Source: Pseudomonadota bacterium
GTDB lineage: Bacteria; Pseudomonadota; Alphaproteobacteria; Rhizobiales; Rhizobiaceae
Assembly (NCBI GenBank): GCA_038525315.1
Contig: JBCBHU010000003.1
Coordinates: forward strand, 219,011 to 283,010
Direction of reading: 5' to 3'
DNA length: 64,000 nucleotides
Made by a program: the position numbers and the translations under genes. Within the stretch, counting starts at the first letter, position 1. Each line of letters starts with the position of its first letter. Shown here piece by piece: positions 40,634-48,162 of the stretch. The notes below the pieces were generated by a model. It saw only the letters and a list, made by a program, of their open reading frames with translations. It ran no database searches and had not been told where the DNA came from.

Positions 40634-41368
40634 CTAGCCCGACATATCCCCGGCTTTGGCCTCATCCACCAAAGCCTGCATTTCGGCCTTGGAAAGCGCC
40701 TGCCCCCCACTTGTCTTGTATTCGGGAGCCACTAGGCCTGCAGAAATCACCAGCTTCGCTGCCTCTTCCACCGACATCTTCAAGTTAATAACGTCCTTGG
40801 CAGGCACAAACAGCAGGAAACCGGACGTGGGGTTGGGCGTGGTTGGCAAAAACACGCTCACCGTCTTCCCCGCCGGGTCATCCAGCTTGGCTTGGACTTC
40901 ACCCAGCGTATCGGTGGCCACAAAGGCCAACGCCCAGATGCCGGGGCGCGGATATTCCACCAGCACGACGGATTGAAAACTGTCCGAATCCTCCCGAAAC
41001 ACCGTCTCGAATATCTGCTTCAGCGCGGAATAGATATTGCGCACCACCGGCATGCGCGACAGCAGATATTCGCCATAGGAGACGATGGATTTGCCGATCA
41101 GATTGGCCGTCAAAAAGCCAATCATGGTGATGCCGATCAAGGCCACCAGGACCCCGAAGCCGGGGATGGAAAACGGCAAATAGGTTTCCGGATTATAGAC
41201 CGCCGGTAAATAGGGCTTCACCCAGGAATCAATCCATTCCACCAGCGTCCACGTGAGGTAAATGGTGATAGCCAGCGGCGCGCAAATAACCAGCCCGGTG
41301 AAAAAATAGTTACGCAGCCGCGTCATATAGGGCTGGCGTTTCACAAGCTGAGATTTGGACTTGGCCAC
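40634..41368 (-). CDS. DUF502 family membrane protein
   Basis: RNYFFTGL, YSALKQIFE, VLVEYPRPG and VFLPTTPNPTSGFL motifs. Alternative start ATG 41326. Confidence 0.9.
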   Translation of the reverse strand: MAKSKSQLVKRQPYMTRLRNYFFTGLVICAPLAITIYLTWTLVEWIDSWVKPYLPAVYNPETYLPFSIPGFGVLVALIGITMIGFLTANLIGKSIVSYGEYLLSRMPVVRNIYSALKQIFETVFREDSDSFQSVVLVEYPRPGIWALAFVATDTLGEVQAKLDDPAGKTVSVFLPTTPNPTSGFLLFVPAKDVINLKMSVEEAAKLVISAGLVAPEYKTSGGQALSKAEMQALVDEAKAGDMSG

Positions 41369-41462
41369 GGGCGTTTTCCTGGAGGGGCCGTCACCGGCAC
41401 CCTTTCTATTTGGCCTGCCCTGTCAGATTTGCAAGCGCTTTATGAACGCCCACAAAAACCAC

Positions 41463-42941
41463 TCAGGGGGACATGGAAACAATGCTGCCGATCTCGTCGA
41501 TATAGACCTTTTGCAGGTTCTGCTGCGCGGTCACCACCTGCCCTTCACCCGTCACCCCAGCGCGGCGAACGGCCATCATTGTCATGCGCAGGTCGGTGTC
41601 ATTTTCCGTGGCGTGGGACTGGGAGATGCGCGCACCGTGATCGCCATGGATCATCACATCCACATTGCCCTTGGCAATGGCGGCATCAACAATGCCCATC
41701 AAATGCTTATGGGTGCAGACGGCCTGATCCCAAAAGCCCTTATAGGCATGGCTCAGGTCAGGATTGGAGGAATAACGGGCCGGATTGGTCCATTCTTCCA
41801 TGGGTTTGAACGAGCAATCGGCGTTCAACACATAGGGGAAATGGGGCAGCAGCAGGTGGGCGATATGCACATCGCCGACTTCCAGTTTGTCCACCTTGCC
41901 GCGAATAACATCCATCATCTTCAACACCACCAGCGGGCGGGAGAAGAAACCGGCGCGATCTTCCTCTTTCTGATTGGCAATGTGCCAATACCGGTCCGCC
42001 ACTTGCACAATGTGAACGGCGGACAGGAAATTGGGGCGTGTGTAGTCGCCATACATGGCGTGGGCCGCCACGTGCAATCGGCGCGTGTAGGACAAGTCAA
42101 AATCCGCAAACATGCCCATATTGTTGGCGCGGGTGTAGGTGTTGCACTCCTCCACTTTGCGGTCGCGGCAAATGTCGAGGAAATTTGTTTGCAGGATGGA
42201 GAGCTTATAGCCCTCATCTTGCATTTGTTGCAGCAGCCGGTCTTCCTTCACCGAATAGGTGTAAGCCGCTCCCACCTCATGTTTGATATAATTATCGGCC
42301 TTGTCCGTCAGGTTCATCATGGCCGAGACGGATTCATAGGTATTTTTGGTGATGGCCATCGTGTTGCCATGCACGGTAAACCCGCGCTTGCGGTAATCCT
42401 CGATAATCCCATGGGCCGCGTGGCCGTCGGGAATAGTATGGGCCATGGCCAAGGGTGAAGATTGCTCATCAATGATGATTTGCAACACGGCATTGCCCGG
42501 CCTTTTTTCAGCCCGTTCAGCGGGACGGGCAGCCGACGCTTGGGCGTGGGAAACCAGCAGTTGCGGGCCGGGTTTCAACAGTGACGTGCCGGAAAAGAAA
42601 ACGGCAAAAACGCCCACTAACGGCAAAAACCACTCCTCAATGCGCTTCATCTCCAAGGACAACAGTAGCGCTAACAGGAAAATGCCGCCCACCCAAGGGT
42701 TCATGCCCTTGATAAAATAGACTTCCAAAAACCAGTAGAGCGCCAACACCATGATGGGGCCAAAAAGCCCACTGCCCCGGCACAAAAAAGCCAGCACGGC
42801 GCCTGCAAAAGCAAACAACGCCGTGATGGTCAACAATTCAAAACTGAACACGCCATAGCCCAAGTCCAGCATGTGGGTGAGCGGGATCGCCCCCATGAGA
42901 GCCATGAGGGCGAAGCGGCGTTTGTTCAGATCGACAGTCAT
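41463..42941 (-). CDS. Membrane-anchored alkaline phosphatase superfamily (sulfatase-like/LtaS-like) enzyme; NoeB-like by context
   Basis: 4-5 N-terminal TM helices, then IIIDEQ (first metal Asp), TKNTYESVSAMMN (candidate Thr nucleophile), HLLLPHFPY and MIHGDHG. No CxPxR formylglycine motif. Start ATG 42941 or TTG 42944. Confidence 0.75.
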   Translation of the reverse strand: MTVDLNKRRFALMALMGAIPLTHMLDLGYGVFSFELLTITALFAFAGAVLAFLCRGSGLFGPIMVLALYWFLEVYFIKGMNPWVGGIFLLALLLSLEMKRIEEWFLPLVGVFAVFFSGTSLLKPGPQLLVSHAQASAARPAERAEKRPGNAVLQIIIDEQSSPLAMAHTIPDGHAAHGIIEDYRKRGFTVHGNTMAITKNTYESVSAMMNLTDKADNYIKHEVGAAYTYSVKEDRLLQQMQDEGYKLSILQTNFLDICRDRKVEECNTYTRANNMGMFADFDLSYTRRLHVAAHAMYGDYTRPNFLSAVHIVQVADRYWHIANQKEEDRAGFFSRPLVVLKMMDVIRGKVDKLEVGDVHIAHLLLPHFPYVLNADCSFKPMEEWTNPARYSSNPDLSHAYKGFWDQAVCTHKHLMGIVDAAIAKGNVDVMIHGDHGARISQSHATENDTDLRMTMMAVRRAGVTGEGQVVTAQQNLQKVYIDEIGSIVSMSP

Positions 42942-42947
42942 CAAGAC

Positions 42948-44354
42948 CTACTTTGTTTTGTAAGAAACCAGCAGACGGCCGTTTTCGTCAAACTCATGCT
43001 CATCTACGATGTTGGCGCGGCTCGAGATGATCTCGCGGAAACGTTCCGTGGTGTAGTCGGGGAAAATATCTTCCCGCACTGCCAGAAGCTGCTTCACCAT
43101 GGGGTCGCGCTTCGGCACGAACTCGATGATACCGCAGGGTGCCAAATCCATCAGCCAATCCACGGCCTCTTGGAAGGGTAGATTGCCGCCGATGACCATG
43201 TGGTGGATGACGGCCAGCGCGATAATGCCATCGGCATCAGCCCGCTCGGCCAGACCCTTGCGCTCCGTCTGACGCCAGCCTAGCGCCGGTGTCGGATCGT
43301 TCATGTTCATCATCACGGGCAACACCGGATCGCCCTTGCGGGTGCGCAACCGATAAGCACCCTCCAGCGAGTCCAGATCAGCGTCCAGAATGACGGCCTT
43401 ACCGGCCCCCTTCCCGATGGCAGCCATGGAAAAGTCGCCCGTATTACCGCCAATATCCCAGAACGTGGCGGGCTTGAACGTTTCGCCCCAACGGCCCACA
43501 AAATCCAGCTTCACGTCCCGCATGGGCTCGCTATAGCTGTTTTTCGCAGCATATTCTTTCCAATAGCTGTCAGGCCGCTTGGCGGATTTCAAATCAGCCA
43601 CAAAATTGCGCAATTGCTTCAAGATCGCTTCATAGCGCGCCTTGGGCAGCGGCGCGGTGGCCTTGTGCTTGTCGTCCGGCGAAGACGTATTCGACAACAC
43701 CGCCTTGCCGTGCAGATAAACATGCATGAACCCACCCAGGCTGGTGAACAGCTTGCGCTTGGGAAGAATGGACATGGCGTCTTCGAACGAAATACCGTTC
43801 AGCGAACCGCGATACATGGGCTGGAAGGAGACACCCGCCCACGCCTCAATCAGCAGCGGCAGCACAAACTGGCGGCAAAACTGATTGTAGCCGTCCCAAT
43901 GCTCACCGTCCTTATAGCGGCGCACCGACATGACATCGATATGCACCGGCTTACCGTCCATGAACTGCATGTTGTAGGCGGTGGCGTCAGAGAGCACAAA
44001 ACCCTTGGCCAGCGCCGCAATCTGCAAATCCAGATGGGCCAGCGCCGCATCTTTCAACTGCGAGAACACCCACTCATAGGGGTATGACAAGAAAGGCACG
44101 CGCGGGTGGCTGTAGAGCGCCGCTGCGCTTTCGCCGCGGGCACCCGTATAGCCGTCAAGGTCACCATTTTCGATCCGCTCGCAGCCGATCATCAGGCCCT
44201 TGTCGTGCAACTCGCCCAAAATGCCGCTGTCATACACATCGCCAAACGCCTCGTGGGCGGCGGGCATAACGGCGCGCACAATGCGCTCACCGTCTGCAAA
44301 AACATAGGCATTGGGGTCCCGAAAAGAGCCGGGATCGCGGACAGGCGCCGTCAT
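42948..44354 (-). CDS. Kinase-like domain fused to class I SAM-dependent methyltransferase (NoeA-like)
   Basis: N-terminal RDPGSFRDP, SYPYEW, LSDATAYNMQF and HIDVMS; C-terminal WDIGGNTGDFS (SAM motif I), LDAD and ALAVIHHM. Confidence 0.8.
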   Translation of the reverse strand: MTAPVRDPGSFRDPNAYVFADGERIVRAVMPAAHEAFGDVYDSGILGELHDKGLMIGCERIENGDLDGYTGARGESAAALYSHPRVPFLSYPYEWVFSQLKDAALAHLDLQIAALAKGFVLSDATAYNMQFMDGKPVHIDVMSVRRYKDGEHWDGYNQFCRQFVLPLLIEAWAGVSFQPMYRGSLNGISFEDAMSILPKRKLFTSLGGFMHVYLHGKAVLSNTSSPDDKHKATAPLPKARYEAILKQLRNFVADLKSAKRPDSYWKEYAAKNSYSEPMRDVKLDFVGRWGETFKPATFWDIGGNTGDFSMAAIGKGAGKAVILDADLDSLEGAYRLRTRKGDPVLPVMMNMNDPTPALGWRQTERKGLAERADADGIIALAVIHHMVIGGNLPFQEAVDWLMDLAPCGIIEFVPKRDPMVKQLLAVREDIFPDYTTERFREIISSRANIVDEHEFDENGRLLVSYKTK

Positions 44355-44575
44355 TTGGCGGTGTCGTCAGCGGAGGTTTCTTCCACAGCCTTGGACTTGA
44401 AGCCCAGAACCGCAAAAATTTTCTCACGAACGTTGCGCACGGCCAGAGAAACAGCAGCAAAACCGCCAATCAGCGCCTGAAGAATGACACTGCCCGTTAT
44501 GGGATCAATGTAAGCGAAAGCGGGGGTGGTGAACGTGACCGTCAAAACGGCGGCAACAAGAACAGTTCTGGACAT
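44351..44575 (-). CDS. 74-aa small membrane protein with YIDPxTGS motif
   Basis: MSRTVLVAAVLTVTFTTPAFA|YIDPITGSVILQALIGGFAAVSLAVRNVREKIF...: signal-like helix, AxA cleavage site, one TM helix, charged tail. ATGA overlap with the downstream gene; GGAA RBS-like sequence upstream. Confidence 0.8.
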   Translation of the reverse strand: MSRTVLVAAVLTVTFTTPAFAYIDPITGSVILQALIGGFAAVSLAVRNVREKIFAVLGFKSKAVEETSADDTAK

Positions 44576-44706
44576 TGCTTTTCCTTGGCAAAACGCGAAA
44601 CAAAATGAGCCAATGCTCAAAGCCCAAATGTGGACCTTGGGAAAACTATGCAGGACTGCTCTTAAGTTGAGGTAAAGATGGTGAACATTGTTGGACACCA
44701 CCCTTT

Positions 44707-44746
44707 AACCATAGAGGGACGGCGGGAACCATAAAGGGACGGCGGG
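44707..44746. repeat. 20-bp tandem direct repeat immediately downstream of the glmS stop (attTn7 position)
   Basis: aaccatagagggacggcggg (44707-44726) and aaccataaagggacggcggg (44727-44746), 19/20 identical. Confidence 0.9.
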
Positions 44747-44749
44747 GGA

Positions 44750-46588
44750 TCACTCCACCGTCACAGATTTCGCCAGATTGCGGGGCTGGTCCACATCCGT
44801 GCCCATGGTCACTGCCGTGTGGTAGGCCAGCATCTGAATGGGCAGGGAATAAATGATCGGCGTGATGATCTCCGGCATTTCCGGCATCACGATCACATTC
44901 GCCTCGTCCATGGCTGCCGCATCGGCACCCTTCTGGTCGGTGATCAGAATGATCTTCCCACCGCGGGCCGCCACTTCCTGCATGTTGGACACGGTCTTTT
45001 CAAAAATGCGGTCATGGGGTGCGATGACGATGACGGGCATTTCCTCGTCGATGAGCGCGATGGGCCCATGTTTTAATTCGCCCGCCGCATAGGCTTCCGC
45101 ATGGATGTAGGAAAGCTCCTTGAGTTTAAGCGCCCCTTCCATGGCCAGCGGATAATTGGTGTCTCGGCCCAGATAGAGAACGCTCTTTTTGTTGGCCAGT
45201 TGATGAGCCAGTTCCGCGATGCGGTCTTCCATCTTCAGCACTTCATGGGCGTAGCGCGGGGCCTCCGCCAATTCCTGAACCAGCTGCTGCTCTTGGGCAG
45301 CATTGATATGCCCACGCTGCACACCGGCCGCCACAGCCAGTGAAGCCAACACAGAAAGCTGGCAGGTGAACGCTTTCGTAGAAGCCACCCCAATTTCCGG
45401 CCCGGCCAACGTGGGGAACACATTGTGGGACGAACGCGCCATGGTGCTTTCGCGCACATTCACAATGGCCGCCAGTTTCTGATCCTGCTGCTCGCAGTAT
45501 TTGAGACACGCCAGCGTATCCGCCGTTTCCCCCGATTGGGAGATGAACAGGGAGAGTCCATTCTGCGTCAACGGCGCCTCGCGGTAGCGAAATTCGGAGG
45601 CCACATCGATATCCACCGGCAGGCGGGCATGGCGCTCAAACCAGTATTTGCCCACAAACCCTGCCAAATAGGCCGTGCCGCAGGCCGTGATGTTCAGCCT
45701 ATCAAGGCTCGCAAAGTCCAGCGGCGCGTCGTTGTCCGCCATATCCCGAATGGCGATCTTACGCTCGTTAAAGTCCACGTAATTGGAAAGCGTGTGGCCG
45801 ATGACCTCCGGCTGCTCATAAATTTCTTTGAGCATAAAGTGGCGGTGATTGCCCTTGTCCACCATCAGCGCCGAACCCACGGAAATTTGCACCGCCCGCT
45901 CCACCGGCGCGCCCGTCTCGTCATAAATTTTATGGCTATCGCGGCGCACAACGGCCCAATCCCCATCTTCCAGATAGGTGATGCGGTTGGTGAACGGCGC
46001 TAGGGCGACAGCGTCGGACCCCAGATACATCTCCCCGTCCCCATGGCCAATGGCCAGTGGCGGGCCGTTGCGCGCGGCCACGATGAGGTCCGCATCGGAG
46101 CCAAACATGATAGCCAGTGCAAAGGCCCCATGCAGACGGGCGATGGCAGCCCGGGCAGCATCTTCGGATGCGCACCCCTCGTTGAGATACTTGGCCACCA
46201 AATGGGCCACCACTTCCGTGTCCGTCTGGCTGGCGAAGGAAAAACCGTCCTTTTCCAACTCCGTGCGCAACTCGCGGAAGTTTTCGATAATGCCGTTATG
46301 AACCACCGCCACGTTGGACGAAAAATGCGGGTGGGCGTTCATTTCCACGGGCGCGCCATGGGTGGCCCAGCGCGTGTGACCAATACCCACATGGCCTGCC
46401 AGCGGTTCAGCATCCAGCCGCTCTTCAAGGTTGACAAGCTTACCCTCCGCCCGGCGGCGGTGCAGGGCACCATCCACATAGGTGGCAACACCGGCGGAAT
46501 CATACCCGCGATATTCCAGCCGCTTCAGCGCATCCACAATCAGCGGCGCCACGGGGCGCGTGCCTACAATACCGACAATTCCGCACAT
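44750..46588 (-). CDS. glmS: Glutamine--fructose-6-phosphate transaminase (isomerizing)
   Basis: N-terminal MCGIVG, RLEYRGYDSAG, GHTRWATHG, EIGVASTKAFT and C-terminal DVDQPRNLAKSVTVE motifs. Confidence 0.99.
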   Translation of the reverse strand: MCGIVGIVGTRPVAPLIVDALKRLEYRGYDSAGVATYVDGALHRRRAEGKLVNLEERLDAEPLAGHVGIGHTRWATHGAPVEMNAHPHFSSNVAVVHNGIIENFRELRTELEKDGFSFASQTDTEVVAHLVAKYLNEGCASEDAARAAIARLHGAFALAIMFGSDADLIVAARNGPPLAIGHGDGEMYLGSDAVALAPFTNRITYLEDGDWAVVRRDSHKIYDETGAPVERAVQISVGSALMVDKGNHRHFMLKEIYEQPEVIGHTLSNYVDFNERKIAIRDMADNDAPLDFASLDRLNITACGTAYLAGFVGKYWFERHARLPVDIDVASEFRYREAPLTQNGLSLFISQSGETADTLACLKYCEQQDQKLAAIVNVRESTMARSSHNVFPTLAGPEIGVASTKAFTCQLSVLASLAVAAGVQRGHINAAQEQQLVQELAEAPRYAHEVLKMEDRIAELAHQLANKKSVLYLGRDTNYPLAMEGALKLKELSYIHAEAYAAGELKHGPIALIDEEMPVIVIAPHDRIFEKTVSNMQEVAARGGKIILITDQKGADAAAMDEANVIVMPEMPEIITPIIYSLPIQMLAYHTAVTMGTDVDQPRNLAKSVTVE

Positions 46589-46699
46589 GATGATTTTTCC
46601 CGCAACCAATCCAAGCCTTACGGCCTGGCCATATCAAATGATGGGCAAAACCTTAGTCAAAAAAGATTTCATTCTTGCAAACAAGCCAAAGAGACACGT

Positions 46700-48088
46700 T
46701 CACGTTTTGGATTTAGCCTCTTTGGCTGCCCTGTTCTTTTCGCGCAGGGTGACAGCCCGCCCGGTTTTATTCACCTGTTCGCCCCGTTCAATGGCCAAAT
46801 CATCATCCGGCACGTCTTTATAGATCACGCTACCCGCCGCCGTGTTGGCGTTTTTGCCCACGCTCACCGGCGCAACGAGGGACGTATTGGTGCCGATAAA
46901 GGCCCCCTCACCCACGATGGTTTTGTGCTTGCCGAAACCGTCATAATTGCACGTAATCGACCCTGCCCCGATATTGGCCTTGGCCCCAATTTCCGTATCG
47001 CCGAAATAGGACAGATGGTTGATCTTGGCCCCAGCCCCCACATAGGCCGCTTTGGTCTCCACGAAATTACCGATCTTCGCCCCTTCCCCCAGCACCGTGC
47101 CGGGCCTTAGACGGGCATAGGGGCCAACGGTGGCATTTTTTCCCACGCTGACCCCTTCCAGATGGGAGAACGCGCGAATGGTAGCGCCAGAAGCAACCAA
47201 AACCTCGGGCCCAAAAACCACATTGGGTTCAATCACCACATCCCGCTCCACCAGCGTATCGTGGTGCAACACAACGCTGTCCGGCACTTGCATGGTCACC
47301 CCATTGCGCAGCAGGGCGTTTCGGCGGCGCTGCTGCCAAAGGGCCTCCACTTGCGCCAGTTGCACCCGATCGTTCACGCCCAGCGTGTCTTCCTCAGGAA
47401 CCGTGATGGCGGACACGTTCAACCCTCGCGCTACACCGATTTCCACCGTGTCCGTGGCGTAATATTCGCCCTGGACATTGTCGTTTTCCACCGCATCCAG
47501 CAGCGATAAAACATGCTCACCGGAAAAGGCGATAATACCACTGTTACAGAAGGTTACCAAGCGTTCTTCATCCGTTGCATCCTTTTGCTCCCGAATGGCC
47601 AGCAGCTTGTCCCCTTCCGTCAACAGACGGCCATAGCCGTGGGGGTCATCCGTCTCAAACCCGAGCACCACAATGCGCTGGCCCGCTGCCAATTGATCGC
47701 GGGCGGCCTTCAAGGTCTCCGTGCGGATAAGCGGCACGTCACCATAGAGCATGACCACATCATCAAACCCCTGCTCTATGGCCTCCCGCGCCGCCAGAAC
47801 GGCATGGGCGGTCCCTGCGCGCACGGTTTGCTCATGAATGGTGGCATTGGGGTCAAAGTCCCCGACGGCCGCTGCCACCCGTTCAGCCTGATTGCCCACC
47901 ACCACGGCCCGGGCACCACCGCCCGCCTCCATGGACGTTTGCAGCACATGGCAAAGCATGGGCAAACCCGCCACCGGGTGCAGCACTTTGGGCATATCAG
48001 AAGCCATGCGCTTGCCCTCACCCGCCGCCAGAATCACGGTCAGGCAGCTGCGCTCCGCGGCTGGTTTGTTTGAAGAATCGCTGGTCAT
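46700..48088 (-). CDS. glmU: Bifunctional UDP-GlcNAc pyrophosphorylase/glucosamine-1-phosphate acetyltransferase
   Basis: VILAAGEGKRMASDMPKVLH, LYGDVPL and GYGR motifs; hexapeptide repeats (GPYARLRPG, KINHLSY, NIGAGSITCNYDG). Start ATG 48088. Confidence 0.97.
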   Translation of the reverse strand: MTSDSSNKPAAERSCLTVILAAGEGKRMASDMPKVLHPVAGLPMLCHVLQTSMEAGGGARAVVVGNQAERVAAAVGDFDPNATIHEQTVRAGTAHAVLAAREAIEQGFDDVVMLYGDVPLIRTETLKAARDQLAAGQRIVVLGFETDDPHGYGRLLTEGDKLLAIREQKDATDEERLVTFCNSGIIAFSGEHVLSLLDAVENDNVQGEYYATDTVEIGVARGLNVSAITVPEEDTLGVNDRVQLAQVEALWQQRRRNALLRNGVTMQVPDSVVLHHDTLVERDVVIEPNVVFGPEVLVASGATIRAFSHLEGVSVGKNATVGPYARLRPGTVLGEGAKIGNFVETKAAYVGAGAKINHLSYFGDTEIGAKANIGAGSITCNYDGFGKHKTIVGEGAFIGTNTSLVAPVSVGKNANTAAGSVIYKDVPDDDLAIERGEQVNKTGRAVTLREKNRAAKEAKSKT

Positions 48089-48162
48089 GGGGGGAATGCC
48101 CAAATCGTTAAAGGTTCTGCTAACCATTTCGTAATGCCTGCGGCCCTAATGTGCCAACAGCG

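Follow-up and report, generated by a model that had tools for sequence, protein, structure and literature searches.

A horizontally acquired NoeA/NoeB-type gene cassette with a conserved microprotein downstream of glmS in a Rhizobiaceae genome

Here, we analyzed a gene cassette within a 64,000-nucleotide stretch of DNA (in the following referred to as the window) from a Pseudomonadota bacterium of the family Rhizobiaceae (contig JBCBHU010000003.1, positions 219,011 to 283,010). The cassette consists of three co-oriented, tightly packed minus-strand genes, which are located between glmS and a DUF502 gene and encode a 74-aa microprotein, a 468-aa protein related to NoeA of Sinorhizobium meliloti, and a multi-spanning membrane protein related to NoeB (Table 1). 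It is a cassette of the already known NoeA/NoeB kind and does not constitute a new kind of system. The first-pass annotation of the window had presented it as an undescribed system, which did not hold, as genetic work had already established noeA and noeB in S. meliloti (Ardourel et al., 1995, cited in PMC9048898 and PMC9758233) and the three-gene neighborhood was reported in PMC9758233 (2022). On balance, we lean towards the reading that the window carries a horizontally acquired NoeA/NoeB cassette with an obligate microprotein, which would act in two compartments to decorate a lipid-linked surface glycopolymer.

The tight coupling of the three genes, which had been noticed in the first-pass annotation, is evident from the open reading frames (ORFs) and the raw boundary sequence. 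The start ATG of the 468-aa ORF is shared with the TGA of the small ORF as ATGA (44354-44351), and a spacer of 6 nt lies between the TAG of the 468-aa ORF (end 42948) and the ATG of the NoeB-like gene (42941). None of the three proteins matched a Pfam or NCBIfam family at E<=0.1, and no Protein Data Bank (PDB) match was obtained for them at sequence level. Homologues of all three proteins occur across phyla, and therefore they represent true genes and not chance ORFs.

Protein families of the cassette

The 468-aa protein aligns with S. meliloti NoeA over residues 4-466 with 38.7% identity and 99% coverage (tblastn, E 8e-89) and its family comprises more than 5,900 homologous clusters. Its AlphaFold2 (AF2) model, for which 48 homologues were used as input, has a predicted local distance difference test (pLDDT) value of 90.8 and a predicted TM-score (pTM) of 0.91. 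A Foldseek search with the whole chain yielded 931 PDB matches at E<=0.001, whereby all of the 50 matches listed are class I methyltransferases, including NodS. The methyltransferase motif I is present as D300-I-G-G-N-T-G306, and D300, G302, G303, and G306 as well as D324 are invariant. The model confirmed the predicted class I S-adenosylmethionine (SAM) methyltransferase fold of the C-terminal half, as had been proposed before. The remaining ~260 residues form a separate N-terminal domain, in which R27, D123, N128, and D140 are invariant across 70 sequences from more than 15 phyla. The D-x4-N...D spacing and the order of helices and strands fit the C-lobe of protein kinases. In such a domain, R27 would take the place of Lys72, D123 and N128 would belong to the D-x4-N catalytic loop, and D140 would correspond to the DFG-like Asp. 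In PMC9758233, the N-terminal domain was placed in the protein-kinase-like superfamily by FFAS, HHpred, and AlphaFold, and the same four positions (R/D/N/D) were named. Based on these four invariant residues and on PMC9758233, a kinase-like nature of the N-terminal domain is plausible. The window protein has no signal sequence.

The membrane protein is a more distant relative of its S. meliloti counterpart. It matched NoeB in tblastn (E 4e-9), in BLASTP (23% identity, E 2e-19), and in an hhalign comparison with a 50-sequence profile from which NoeB itself was excluded (99.6%, E 9.6e-24, 432 columns). Judged from these alignments, the 493-aa protein is homologous to NoeB but strongly diverged, and the relationship to NoeA and NoeB that had been suggested for the cassette was thereby supported for both enzymes. 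The AF2 model (pLDDT 87.5) comprises five N-terminal transmembrane helices (residues 6-122) and an alpha/beta domain of the AP superfamily on the extracytoplasmic side. The top Foldseek matches of the model are full-length MCR-1, LtaS, EptA, and PbgA, followed by many sulfatases (E 4.6e-10 to 1e-7, TM-scores of 0.35-0.45). Thus, AF2 and Foldseek agree with the earlier assignment of a multi-spanning protein with an alkaline-phosphatase (AP) fold, with the specification that the nucleophile is a Thr and not a formylglycine.

Within the alignment of 50 homologues of the NoeB-like protein, D159, T202, H363, and D435 are invariant, H368 is present in 49 sequences, and position 436 is occupied by His in 37 and by Glu in 13 of them. 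The nucleophile column consists of an invariant Thr in the context N-x-T-x-x-S. By analogy, the active site would be of the Thr-nucleophile, metal-dependent phosphotransferase type, with a putative D/D/H metal site. A C/S-x-P-x-R (CxPxR) motif is absent at the nucleophile position, and together with the invariant Thr this rules out a formylglycine-dependent sulfatase. EptA/MCR-1, LtaS, OpgB, and PbgA share with the NoeB-like protein the arrangement of five transmembrane helices and an AP fold, the Thr nucleophile, and the Asp/Asp/His ligands. Unlike in these proteins, the first metal ligand is an Asp and not a Glu, and the likeness is one at fold level only. Neither the Pfam Sulfatase family nor any other family was matched at E<=0.1, nor was there a PDB sequence match that would assign the protein to EptA/MCR-1 or LtaS by sequence. 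We therefore liken the NoeB-like protein to these enzymes in its possible function, whereas by sequence it stands outside their families. At two loci (L023:11428-14829 and L072:11387-14544), two NoeB-like paralogues are found in tandem after NoeA, and forms of 700-880 aa with added C-terminal domains occur in L091 (Pfam DUF7024), L033, L052, L093, and L005.

The window microprotein consists of a predicted signal peptide ending in AFA, the sequence YIDPITGS, one predicted transmembrane helix that contains the invariant Gln33, a juxtamembrane stretch of basic character, and an acidic end. The same architecture characterizes the family: a leader, the cap Y-[LI]-D-P-G-[TS]-G-S, a single transmembrane helix with an invariant Gln, a juxtamembrane region with a net charge of about +4, and an acidic end. 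Tyr and Gln are invariant, and the D, P, G, and S positions of the cap are conserved to at least 90%. These frequencies were derived from sequences that had been picked with a loose pattern, and the Gln count alone is fully independent of that selection; Gln is also kept in all seven microproteins that miss the loose pattern. An AxA-like site immediately precedes the invariant Tyr in 49 of 61 leaders, and 11 leaderless microproteins, mostly from Chloroflexota and Gemmatimonadales, start at or near this Tyr. For both forms, the sequence features predict the same topology with the N-terminus outside and the C-terminus inside.

For the locus survey described below, a microprotein profile was built from five proteins, namely those of the window, S. 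meliloti, Novosphingobium, Singulisphaera, and a deltaproteobacterium. A profile search of 1.84 billion representatives resulted in 16,082 microprotein clusters, formed at 50% identity, at E<=1e-3, of which 8,298 reached E<=1e-10, and the best 150 matches were small proteins without exception. The top-scoring representative, P0137 (161 aa), contains two matched stretches and has arisen either by tandem duplication or by fusion of two microproteins. No match to the motif strings of the microprotein was obtained in the papers searched.

Linkage and taxonomic range of the cassette

Conservation of the triad across phyla had been set as a test beforehand and was found in the neighborhood survey. 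For this, 80 genomic loci were retrieved through NoeA and searched in six frames, and a NoeA ORF was called in 78 of them. The microprotein was present in all 80 NoeA-selected loci, on the same strand every time. It is located directly upstream of the NoeA ORF in 75 of the 78 loci and directly downstream in three (Bacteroidales), and the two genes usually overlap. In 58 of the 78 loci, a NoeB-like gene lies no more than 2.5 kb from NoeA, on the same strand in 45 of them; 10 of the 20 loci without an adjacent NoeB-like gene end at a contig edge. In four of five tested genomes without an adjacent copy, a strong NoeB-like protein of full length is encoded at another site (E 1e-118 to 1e-151), and these unlinked copies have neither NoeA nor the microprotein alongside. 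As the microprotein goes along with NoeA and the unlinked NoeB-like copies stand alone, NoeB can be regarded as a frequent but separable partner.

The cassette order small ORF-NoeA-NoeB with overlap was also found on S. meliloti pSymA, on a Novosphingobium plasmid, and in Singulisphaera. On the deltaproteobacterial plasmid Smac51 (L005), the AP-fold gene comes first, followed by the NoeA-like gene and the small ORF. The small ORF is unannotated in Singulisphaera and in the deltaproteobacterium. On pSymA (L003:3763-3978), a 71-aa ORF between nodL and noeA is annotated as "hypothetical protein". The nodL-noeA-noeB region of S. meliloti has the same gene order as the window, including this ORF, which contains Y-L-D-P-G-T-G-S and overlaps the noeA start; the classical nodL-noeA-noeB operon therefore has a fourth gene. 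The window differs from the S. meliloti operon in that it contains no nod box, nodL, or symbiosis genes, is chromosomal, and carries the cassette after glmS, and in that its NoeB is only 23% identical.

A unit of the same three families has been described in Legionella anisa, where Lani_1193/1194/1195 encode a small protein, a fusion of a kinase-like domain with a class I methyltransferase, and an AP-fold membrane protein (PMC9758233; Sci Rep 2022). There, a small neighbor was reported in 65% and an AP-fold neighbor in 38% of the annotated neighborhoods, compared to 80/80 and 58/78, respectively, in the present survey. The higher counts are due to the six-frame searching. An effector role was proposed for Lani_1194 in PMC9758233, and in line with this NoeA might be a protein kinase or a secreted effector that acts on proteins; the family is part of the Legionella effector kinome, and secretion signals were predicted for the neighbors (PMC9758233). 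We regard this as very improbable for the family, since it is widespread in free-living bacteria and archaea that possess no host-directed secretion systems and is located in glycan-biosynthesis neighborhoods, and since the window protein, which lacks a signal sequence, is translationally coupled to membrane proteins. The distribution in our survey rather argues for a general envelope role.

The linkage was also analyzed in the reverse direction with a 12-sequence microprotein subset on metagenomes, which covers the YLDPGTGSY subgroup only. Here, 80 metagenome loci were picked by YLDPGTGSY alone, 70 of which have at least 300 nt of downstream sequence. A NoeA-like gene abuts the microprotein in 65 of these 70 loci (64 right after and one directly upstream). 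The five exceptions comprise a sulfatase-family protein (one locus), a nucleotidyltransferase-methyltransferase fusion beside dTDP-sugar genes (one locus), TagF-like CDP-glycerol glycerophosphotransferases (two loci), and one locus without a called neighbor (L179). The microprotein loci with a partner other than NoeA are L166:2313-3969, L207:122-1573, L221:2670-5547, and L161:11-2025. Since the microprotein stands ahead of other enzymes at these loci, it appears to be common to several enzymes for the synthesis of phosphate-containing glycopolymers, and the partner swap with TagF-like enzymes likewise suggests such glycopolymers as a common theme.

The strongest conservation of the microprotein lies in the outward cap and in the membrane-embedded Gln, and the cap would be on that face of the membrane where the catalytic domain of NoeB lies. 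Thus, it could be that the microprotein is itself a substrate or shuttle, whereby the Tyr/Ser cap (Y-x-D-P-G-x-G-S) would bear a phospho-group that is set or removed by NoeB, comparable to the D-alanine on the conserved Tyr of DltX. We give this idea little credit, because the microprotein tracks NoeA and not NoeB, NoeB-like genes away from NoeA have no microprotein, the cytoplasmic NoeA would be unable to reach the cap, and the microprotein pairs with TagF-like enzymes, too.

Clustering of the neighbors within 6 kb revealed no other widely common family beyond the triad. The next commonest neighbors were sugar epimerases/dehydratases (8 loci), family GT2 glycosyltransferases (6 loci), ABC ATPases (5 loci), and family GT4 glycosyltransferases (5 loci). 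At loci missing NoeB, WbsX, a capsule-synthesis protein, and another protein of the AP superfamily occur, and the Novosphingobium copy is located amid polysaccharide export, glycosyltransferase, and GDP-mannose genes. Given the recurrent sugar-enzyme, glycosyltransferase, and capsule neighbors, a role in surface-glycopolymer synthesis is most likely. The cassette is distributed across more than 15 phyla, and among its carriers are Chloroflexota, Actinomycetota, Firmicutes, Patescibacteria, Altiarchaeota, and Methanomicrobia. This spread into monoderms and archaea excludes a target that is restricted to diderm envelopes. Accordingly, the earlier proposal of a target specific to lipopolysaccharide (LPS) or periplasmic glucans found no support in view of the copies in Chloroflexota, Actinomycetota, Patescibacteria, and archaea.

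Insertion between glmS and the DUF502 gene

Within the genus of the window, the 468-aa gene is carried by two of 25 genomes, and it was found in none of the 16 other families of the same order that were sampled. The DUF502 gene was found in 23 of the 26 genomes of the genus, and in all ten cassette-free congeners that were inspected it lies ~80-210 bp past the glmS stop. A CTTGCAA-containing sequence is located directly past the glmS stop in these empty sites, but past the NoeB-like stop in the window, which places a block of 3.3 kb immediately 3' of glmS. This block between glmS and the DUF502 gene is an insertion. The cassette has been horizontally acquired by one lineage of the genus at the site just 3' of glmS, and the earlier suggestion that it was inserted between the otherwise adjacent glmS and DUF502 genes was thus correct (empty sites in 10/10 congeners).

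The inserted block contains only the three cassette genes; an integrase, transposase, or other mobility gene was not found in it, nor were terminal inverted repeats flanking the insert. Directly past the glmS stop, the window has a 20-bp tandem repeat whose copies are identical at 19 of 20 positions. The sister genome G001 contains a single copy of the 20-mer, which is preceded by ~170 bp of unrelated sequence with an inverted repeat; the duplication in the window genome is therefore recent and strain-specific. The insert junctions differ between the genomes G000 and G001. A Tn7-type insertion at attTn7 was ruled out, as there are no tnsABC(D) genes and no terminal inverted repeats and as the 20-bp repeat is genome-specific. 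Eight nucleotides past the NoeB-like stop (window 41447-41454, minus strand), there is an octamer, TGTGGGCG, which we take to be equal to the terminal 8 bp of Tn7. It has no partner end and no tns genes, is absent in G001, and is oriented in a way that does not fit an element end; probably, it has arisen by chance. We also discarded the options of a defence system and of phage cargo, since the three proteins gave no PADLOC match and no copy was present in 50,697 phage records.

Table 1. Coordinates of the cassette genes, their junctions, and the flanking genes in the window.
Feature	Position	Strand	Remarks
Microprotein gene	44351..44575 (44575->44351)	-	74 aa; ATG with AAGGA ahead; identified from sequence
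NoeA-like protein gene	42948..44354 (44354->42948)	-	468 aa; ends in TAG; homology to S. meliloti noeA
NoeB-like membrane enzyme gene	41463..42941	-	492 aa from ATG at 42941; 493 aa from alternative TTG at 42944
glmS-proximal junction / cassette leader	44576..44749	-	20-bp tandem repeat 44707-44746; weak hairpin 44606-44619
Distal junction	41369..41462	-	CTTGCAA-containing sequence (about 41429-41435) after the NoeB-like stop
glmU	46700-48127		flank of the cassette; Pfam
glmS	44750..46609	-	flank; Pfam SIS + GATase
DUF502 gene	40634..41368	-	flank; Pfam DUF502, E 1.3e-35

The location behind glmU-glmS is uninformative on function, as merely two of the 80 other loci have glmS at a distance of up to 10 kb from the cassette. 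Together with the empty sites in the ten congeners, this led us to reject a functional tie to glmS, and the link to glmS and N-acetylglucosamine (GlcNAc) that had been drawn in the first-pass annotation was not borne out. This also bears on a scheme in which a methyl-phosphate (or phospho-methylated) donor is produced by NoeA on a lipid carrier and passed on by NoeB to LPS, to a periplasmic glucan, or to a glycan derived from GlcNAc, with the place next to glmU-glmS reflecting a functional link. The domain logic would fit, with an enzyme that uses ATP and SAM inside and an AP-fold transferase outside, and a precedent for methyl phosphate on a glycan exists in WbdD of Escherichia coli O9a, a kinase-methyltransferase by which the O-antigen is capped with methyl phosphate. 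We nevertheless consider this scheme improbable, as the glmS adjacency is peculiar to the window insertion, as monoderm phyla, Patescibacteria, and archaea, all without LPS and osmoregulated glucans, also carry the cassette, and as known AP-fold transferases draw their phospho-group from ordinary phospholipids and not from a dedicated methylated donor.

Possible mechanism and meaning for the NoeA/NoeB family

A two-compartment decoration of a lipid-linked surface glycopolymer could proceed as follows. The microprotein, with its N-terminus outside and its basic tail inside, would serve as a docking site for the soluble NoeA on the membrane's inner face. There, NoeA would use ATP in its N-terminal kinase-like domain and SAM in its C-terminal domain and, in a WbdD-like manner, might phosphorylate and methylate its substrate. 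At the outer face, NoeB would carry out a metal-dependent phospho-group transfer via a covalent intermediate at Thr202, as in EptA or LtaS. The acceptor would be lineage-specific and independent of glmS, LPS, and periplasmic glucans. Taken alone, this mechanism is a tentative proposal, which we regard as somewhat doubtful.

The best functional analogy for NoeA may be WbdD, a bifunctional enzyme that uses ATP and SAM and acts at the inner membrane face on a lipid-linked glycan. In WbdD, however, the domain order is reversed, there is a coiled-coil ruler, and neither a microprotein nor an AP-fold partner is involved, so that the two are likened by function alone. A second analogy is provided by BcsE-BcsF-BcsG of enterobacterial cellulose modification, which comprise a cytoplasmic protein, a single-pass recruiter of ~60 aa, and an AP-fold phosphoethanolamine transferase. 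The Bcs trio and the cassette may be seen as the same cast by analogy, and no homology is claimed; BcsE is not an enzyme fusion of the NoeA kind, and BcsF is without the Y-x-D-P-G-x-G-S cap.

Several points weigh against the decoration of a glycopolymer by NoeA and NoeB in two compartments. We know of no member of the NoeA/NoeB family with a known biochemical activity. Conservation of the microprotein is highest in its extracytoplasmic part, which a mere cytoplasmic tether fails to explain, and the action of NoeA and NoeB on one common molecule is an assumption drawn by analogy. Furthermore, kinases are absent from the 50 listed Foldseek matches of the whole NoeA chain, among which the methyltransferase domain dominates. 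A 70-sequence profile compared against PDB sequences did not retrieve a kinase, a Pfam scan of 70 NoeA-family members yielded solely RIO1 in two of them (E about 0.09), and hhalign comparisons with APH and UbiB (UbiB/ABC1) alignments from related genomes gave a probability of less than 1%. Kdo/WaaP kinases, which were wanted as a yardstick, were not present in 61 genomes of the class. In the literature, noeA and noeB are described as genes whose roles "remain unknown" (bioRxiv 10.1101/2021.11.23.469708).

It might also be that the cassette encodes a head-group pathway, in which the kinase-like domain of NoeA phosphorylates an amino-alcohol of the ethanolamine/choline type, the methyltransferase domain N-methylates it, and NoeB transfers the resulting phosphocholine-like group to a surface glycan or protein, similar to PptA or EptC. 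AP-fold enzymes do put phospho-head groups on glycans and proteins, and the nucleotidyltransferase-methyltransferase fusion that replaces NoeA at one microprotein locus recalls an activation of the LicC type. In PMC9758233, phosphoethanolamine N-methyltransferase was the threading match of the methyltransferase domain. On the other hand, the likeness of this domain to any single class I enzyme is generic, the hhalign comparison with the APH/choline-kinase family was negative, and it is not obvious why a soluble small-molecule route should require an obligate membrane microprotein. We thus assign a low probability to the head-group pathway.

With regard to the microprotein, a broader view would be that it represents a widespread, previously unrecognised class of transmembrane coupling subunit for bacteria and archaea, which recruits cytoplasmic enzymes for the synthesis or decoration of phosphate-containing glycopolymers (NoeA, TagF-like glycerophosphotransferases, and nucleotidyltransferase-methyltransferase fusions), whereby the outward cap and the buried Gln would link to an outer-face AP-fold transferase or to a lipid carrier. 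We regard this as rather unlikely at present. If it were true, NoeA/NoeB would be one outcome of an as yet undescribed, general principle of assembly.

For a question that dates back to 1995, namely the biochemical role of NoeA/NoeB, one solved case would annotate thousands of genes, since the cassette is found in most bacterial phyla and in some archaea. The window offers a clean natural experiment for this, with sister genomes that differ in the presence or absence of a bare three-gene insert. The survey sharpens the target in three respects: the microprotein is essentially an obligate partner of NoeA, NoeB is usually present even when unlinked, and the recurring context is the synthesis of surface glycopolymers and not LPS or symbiosis.

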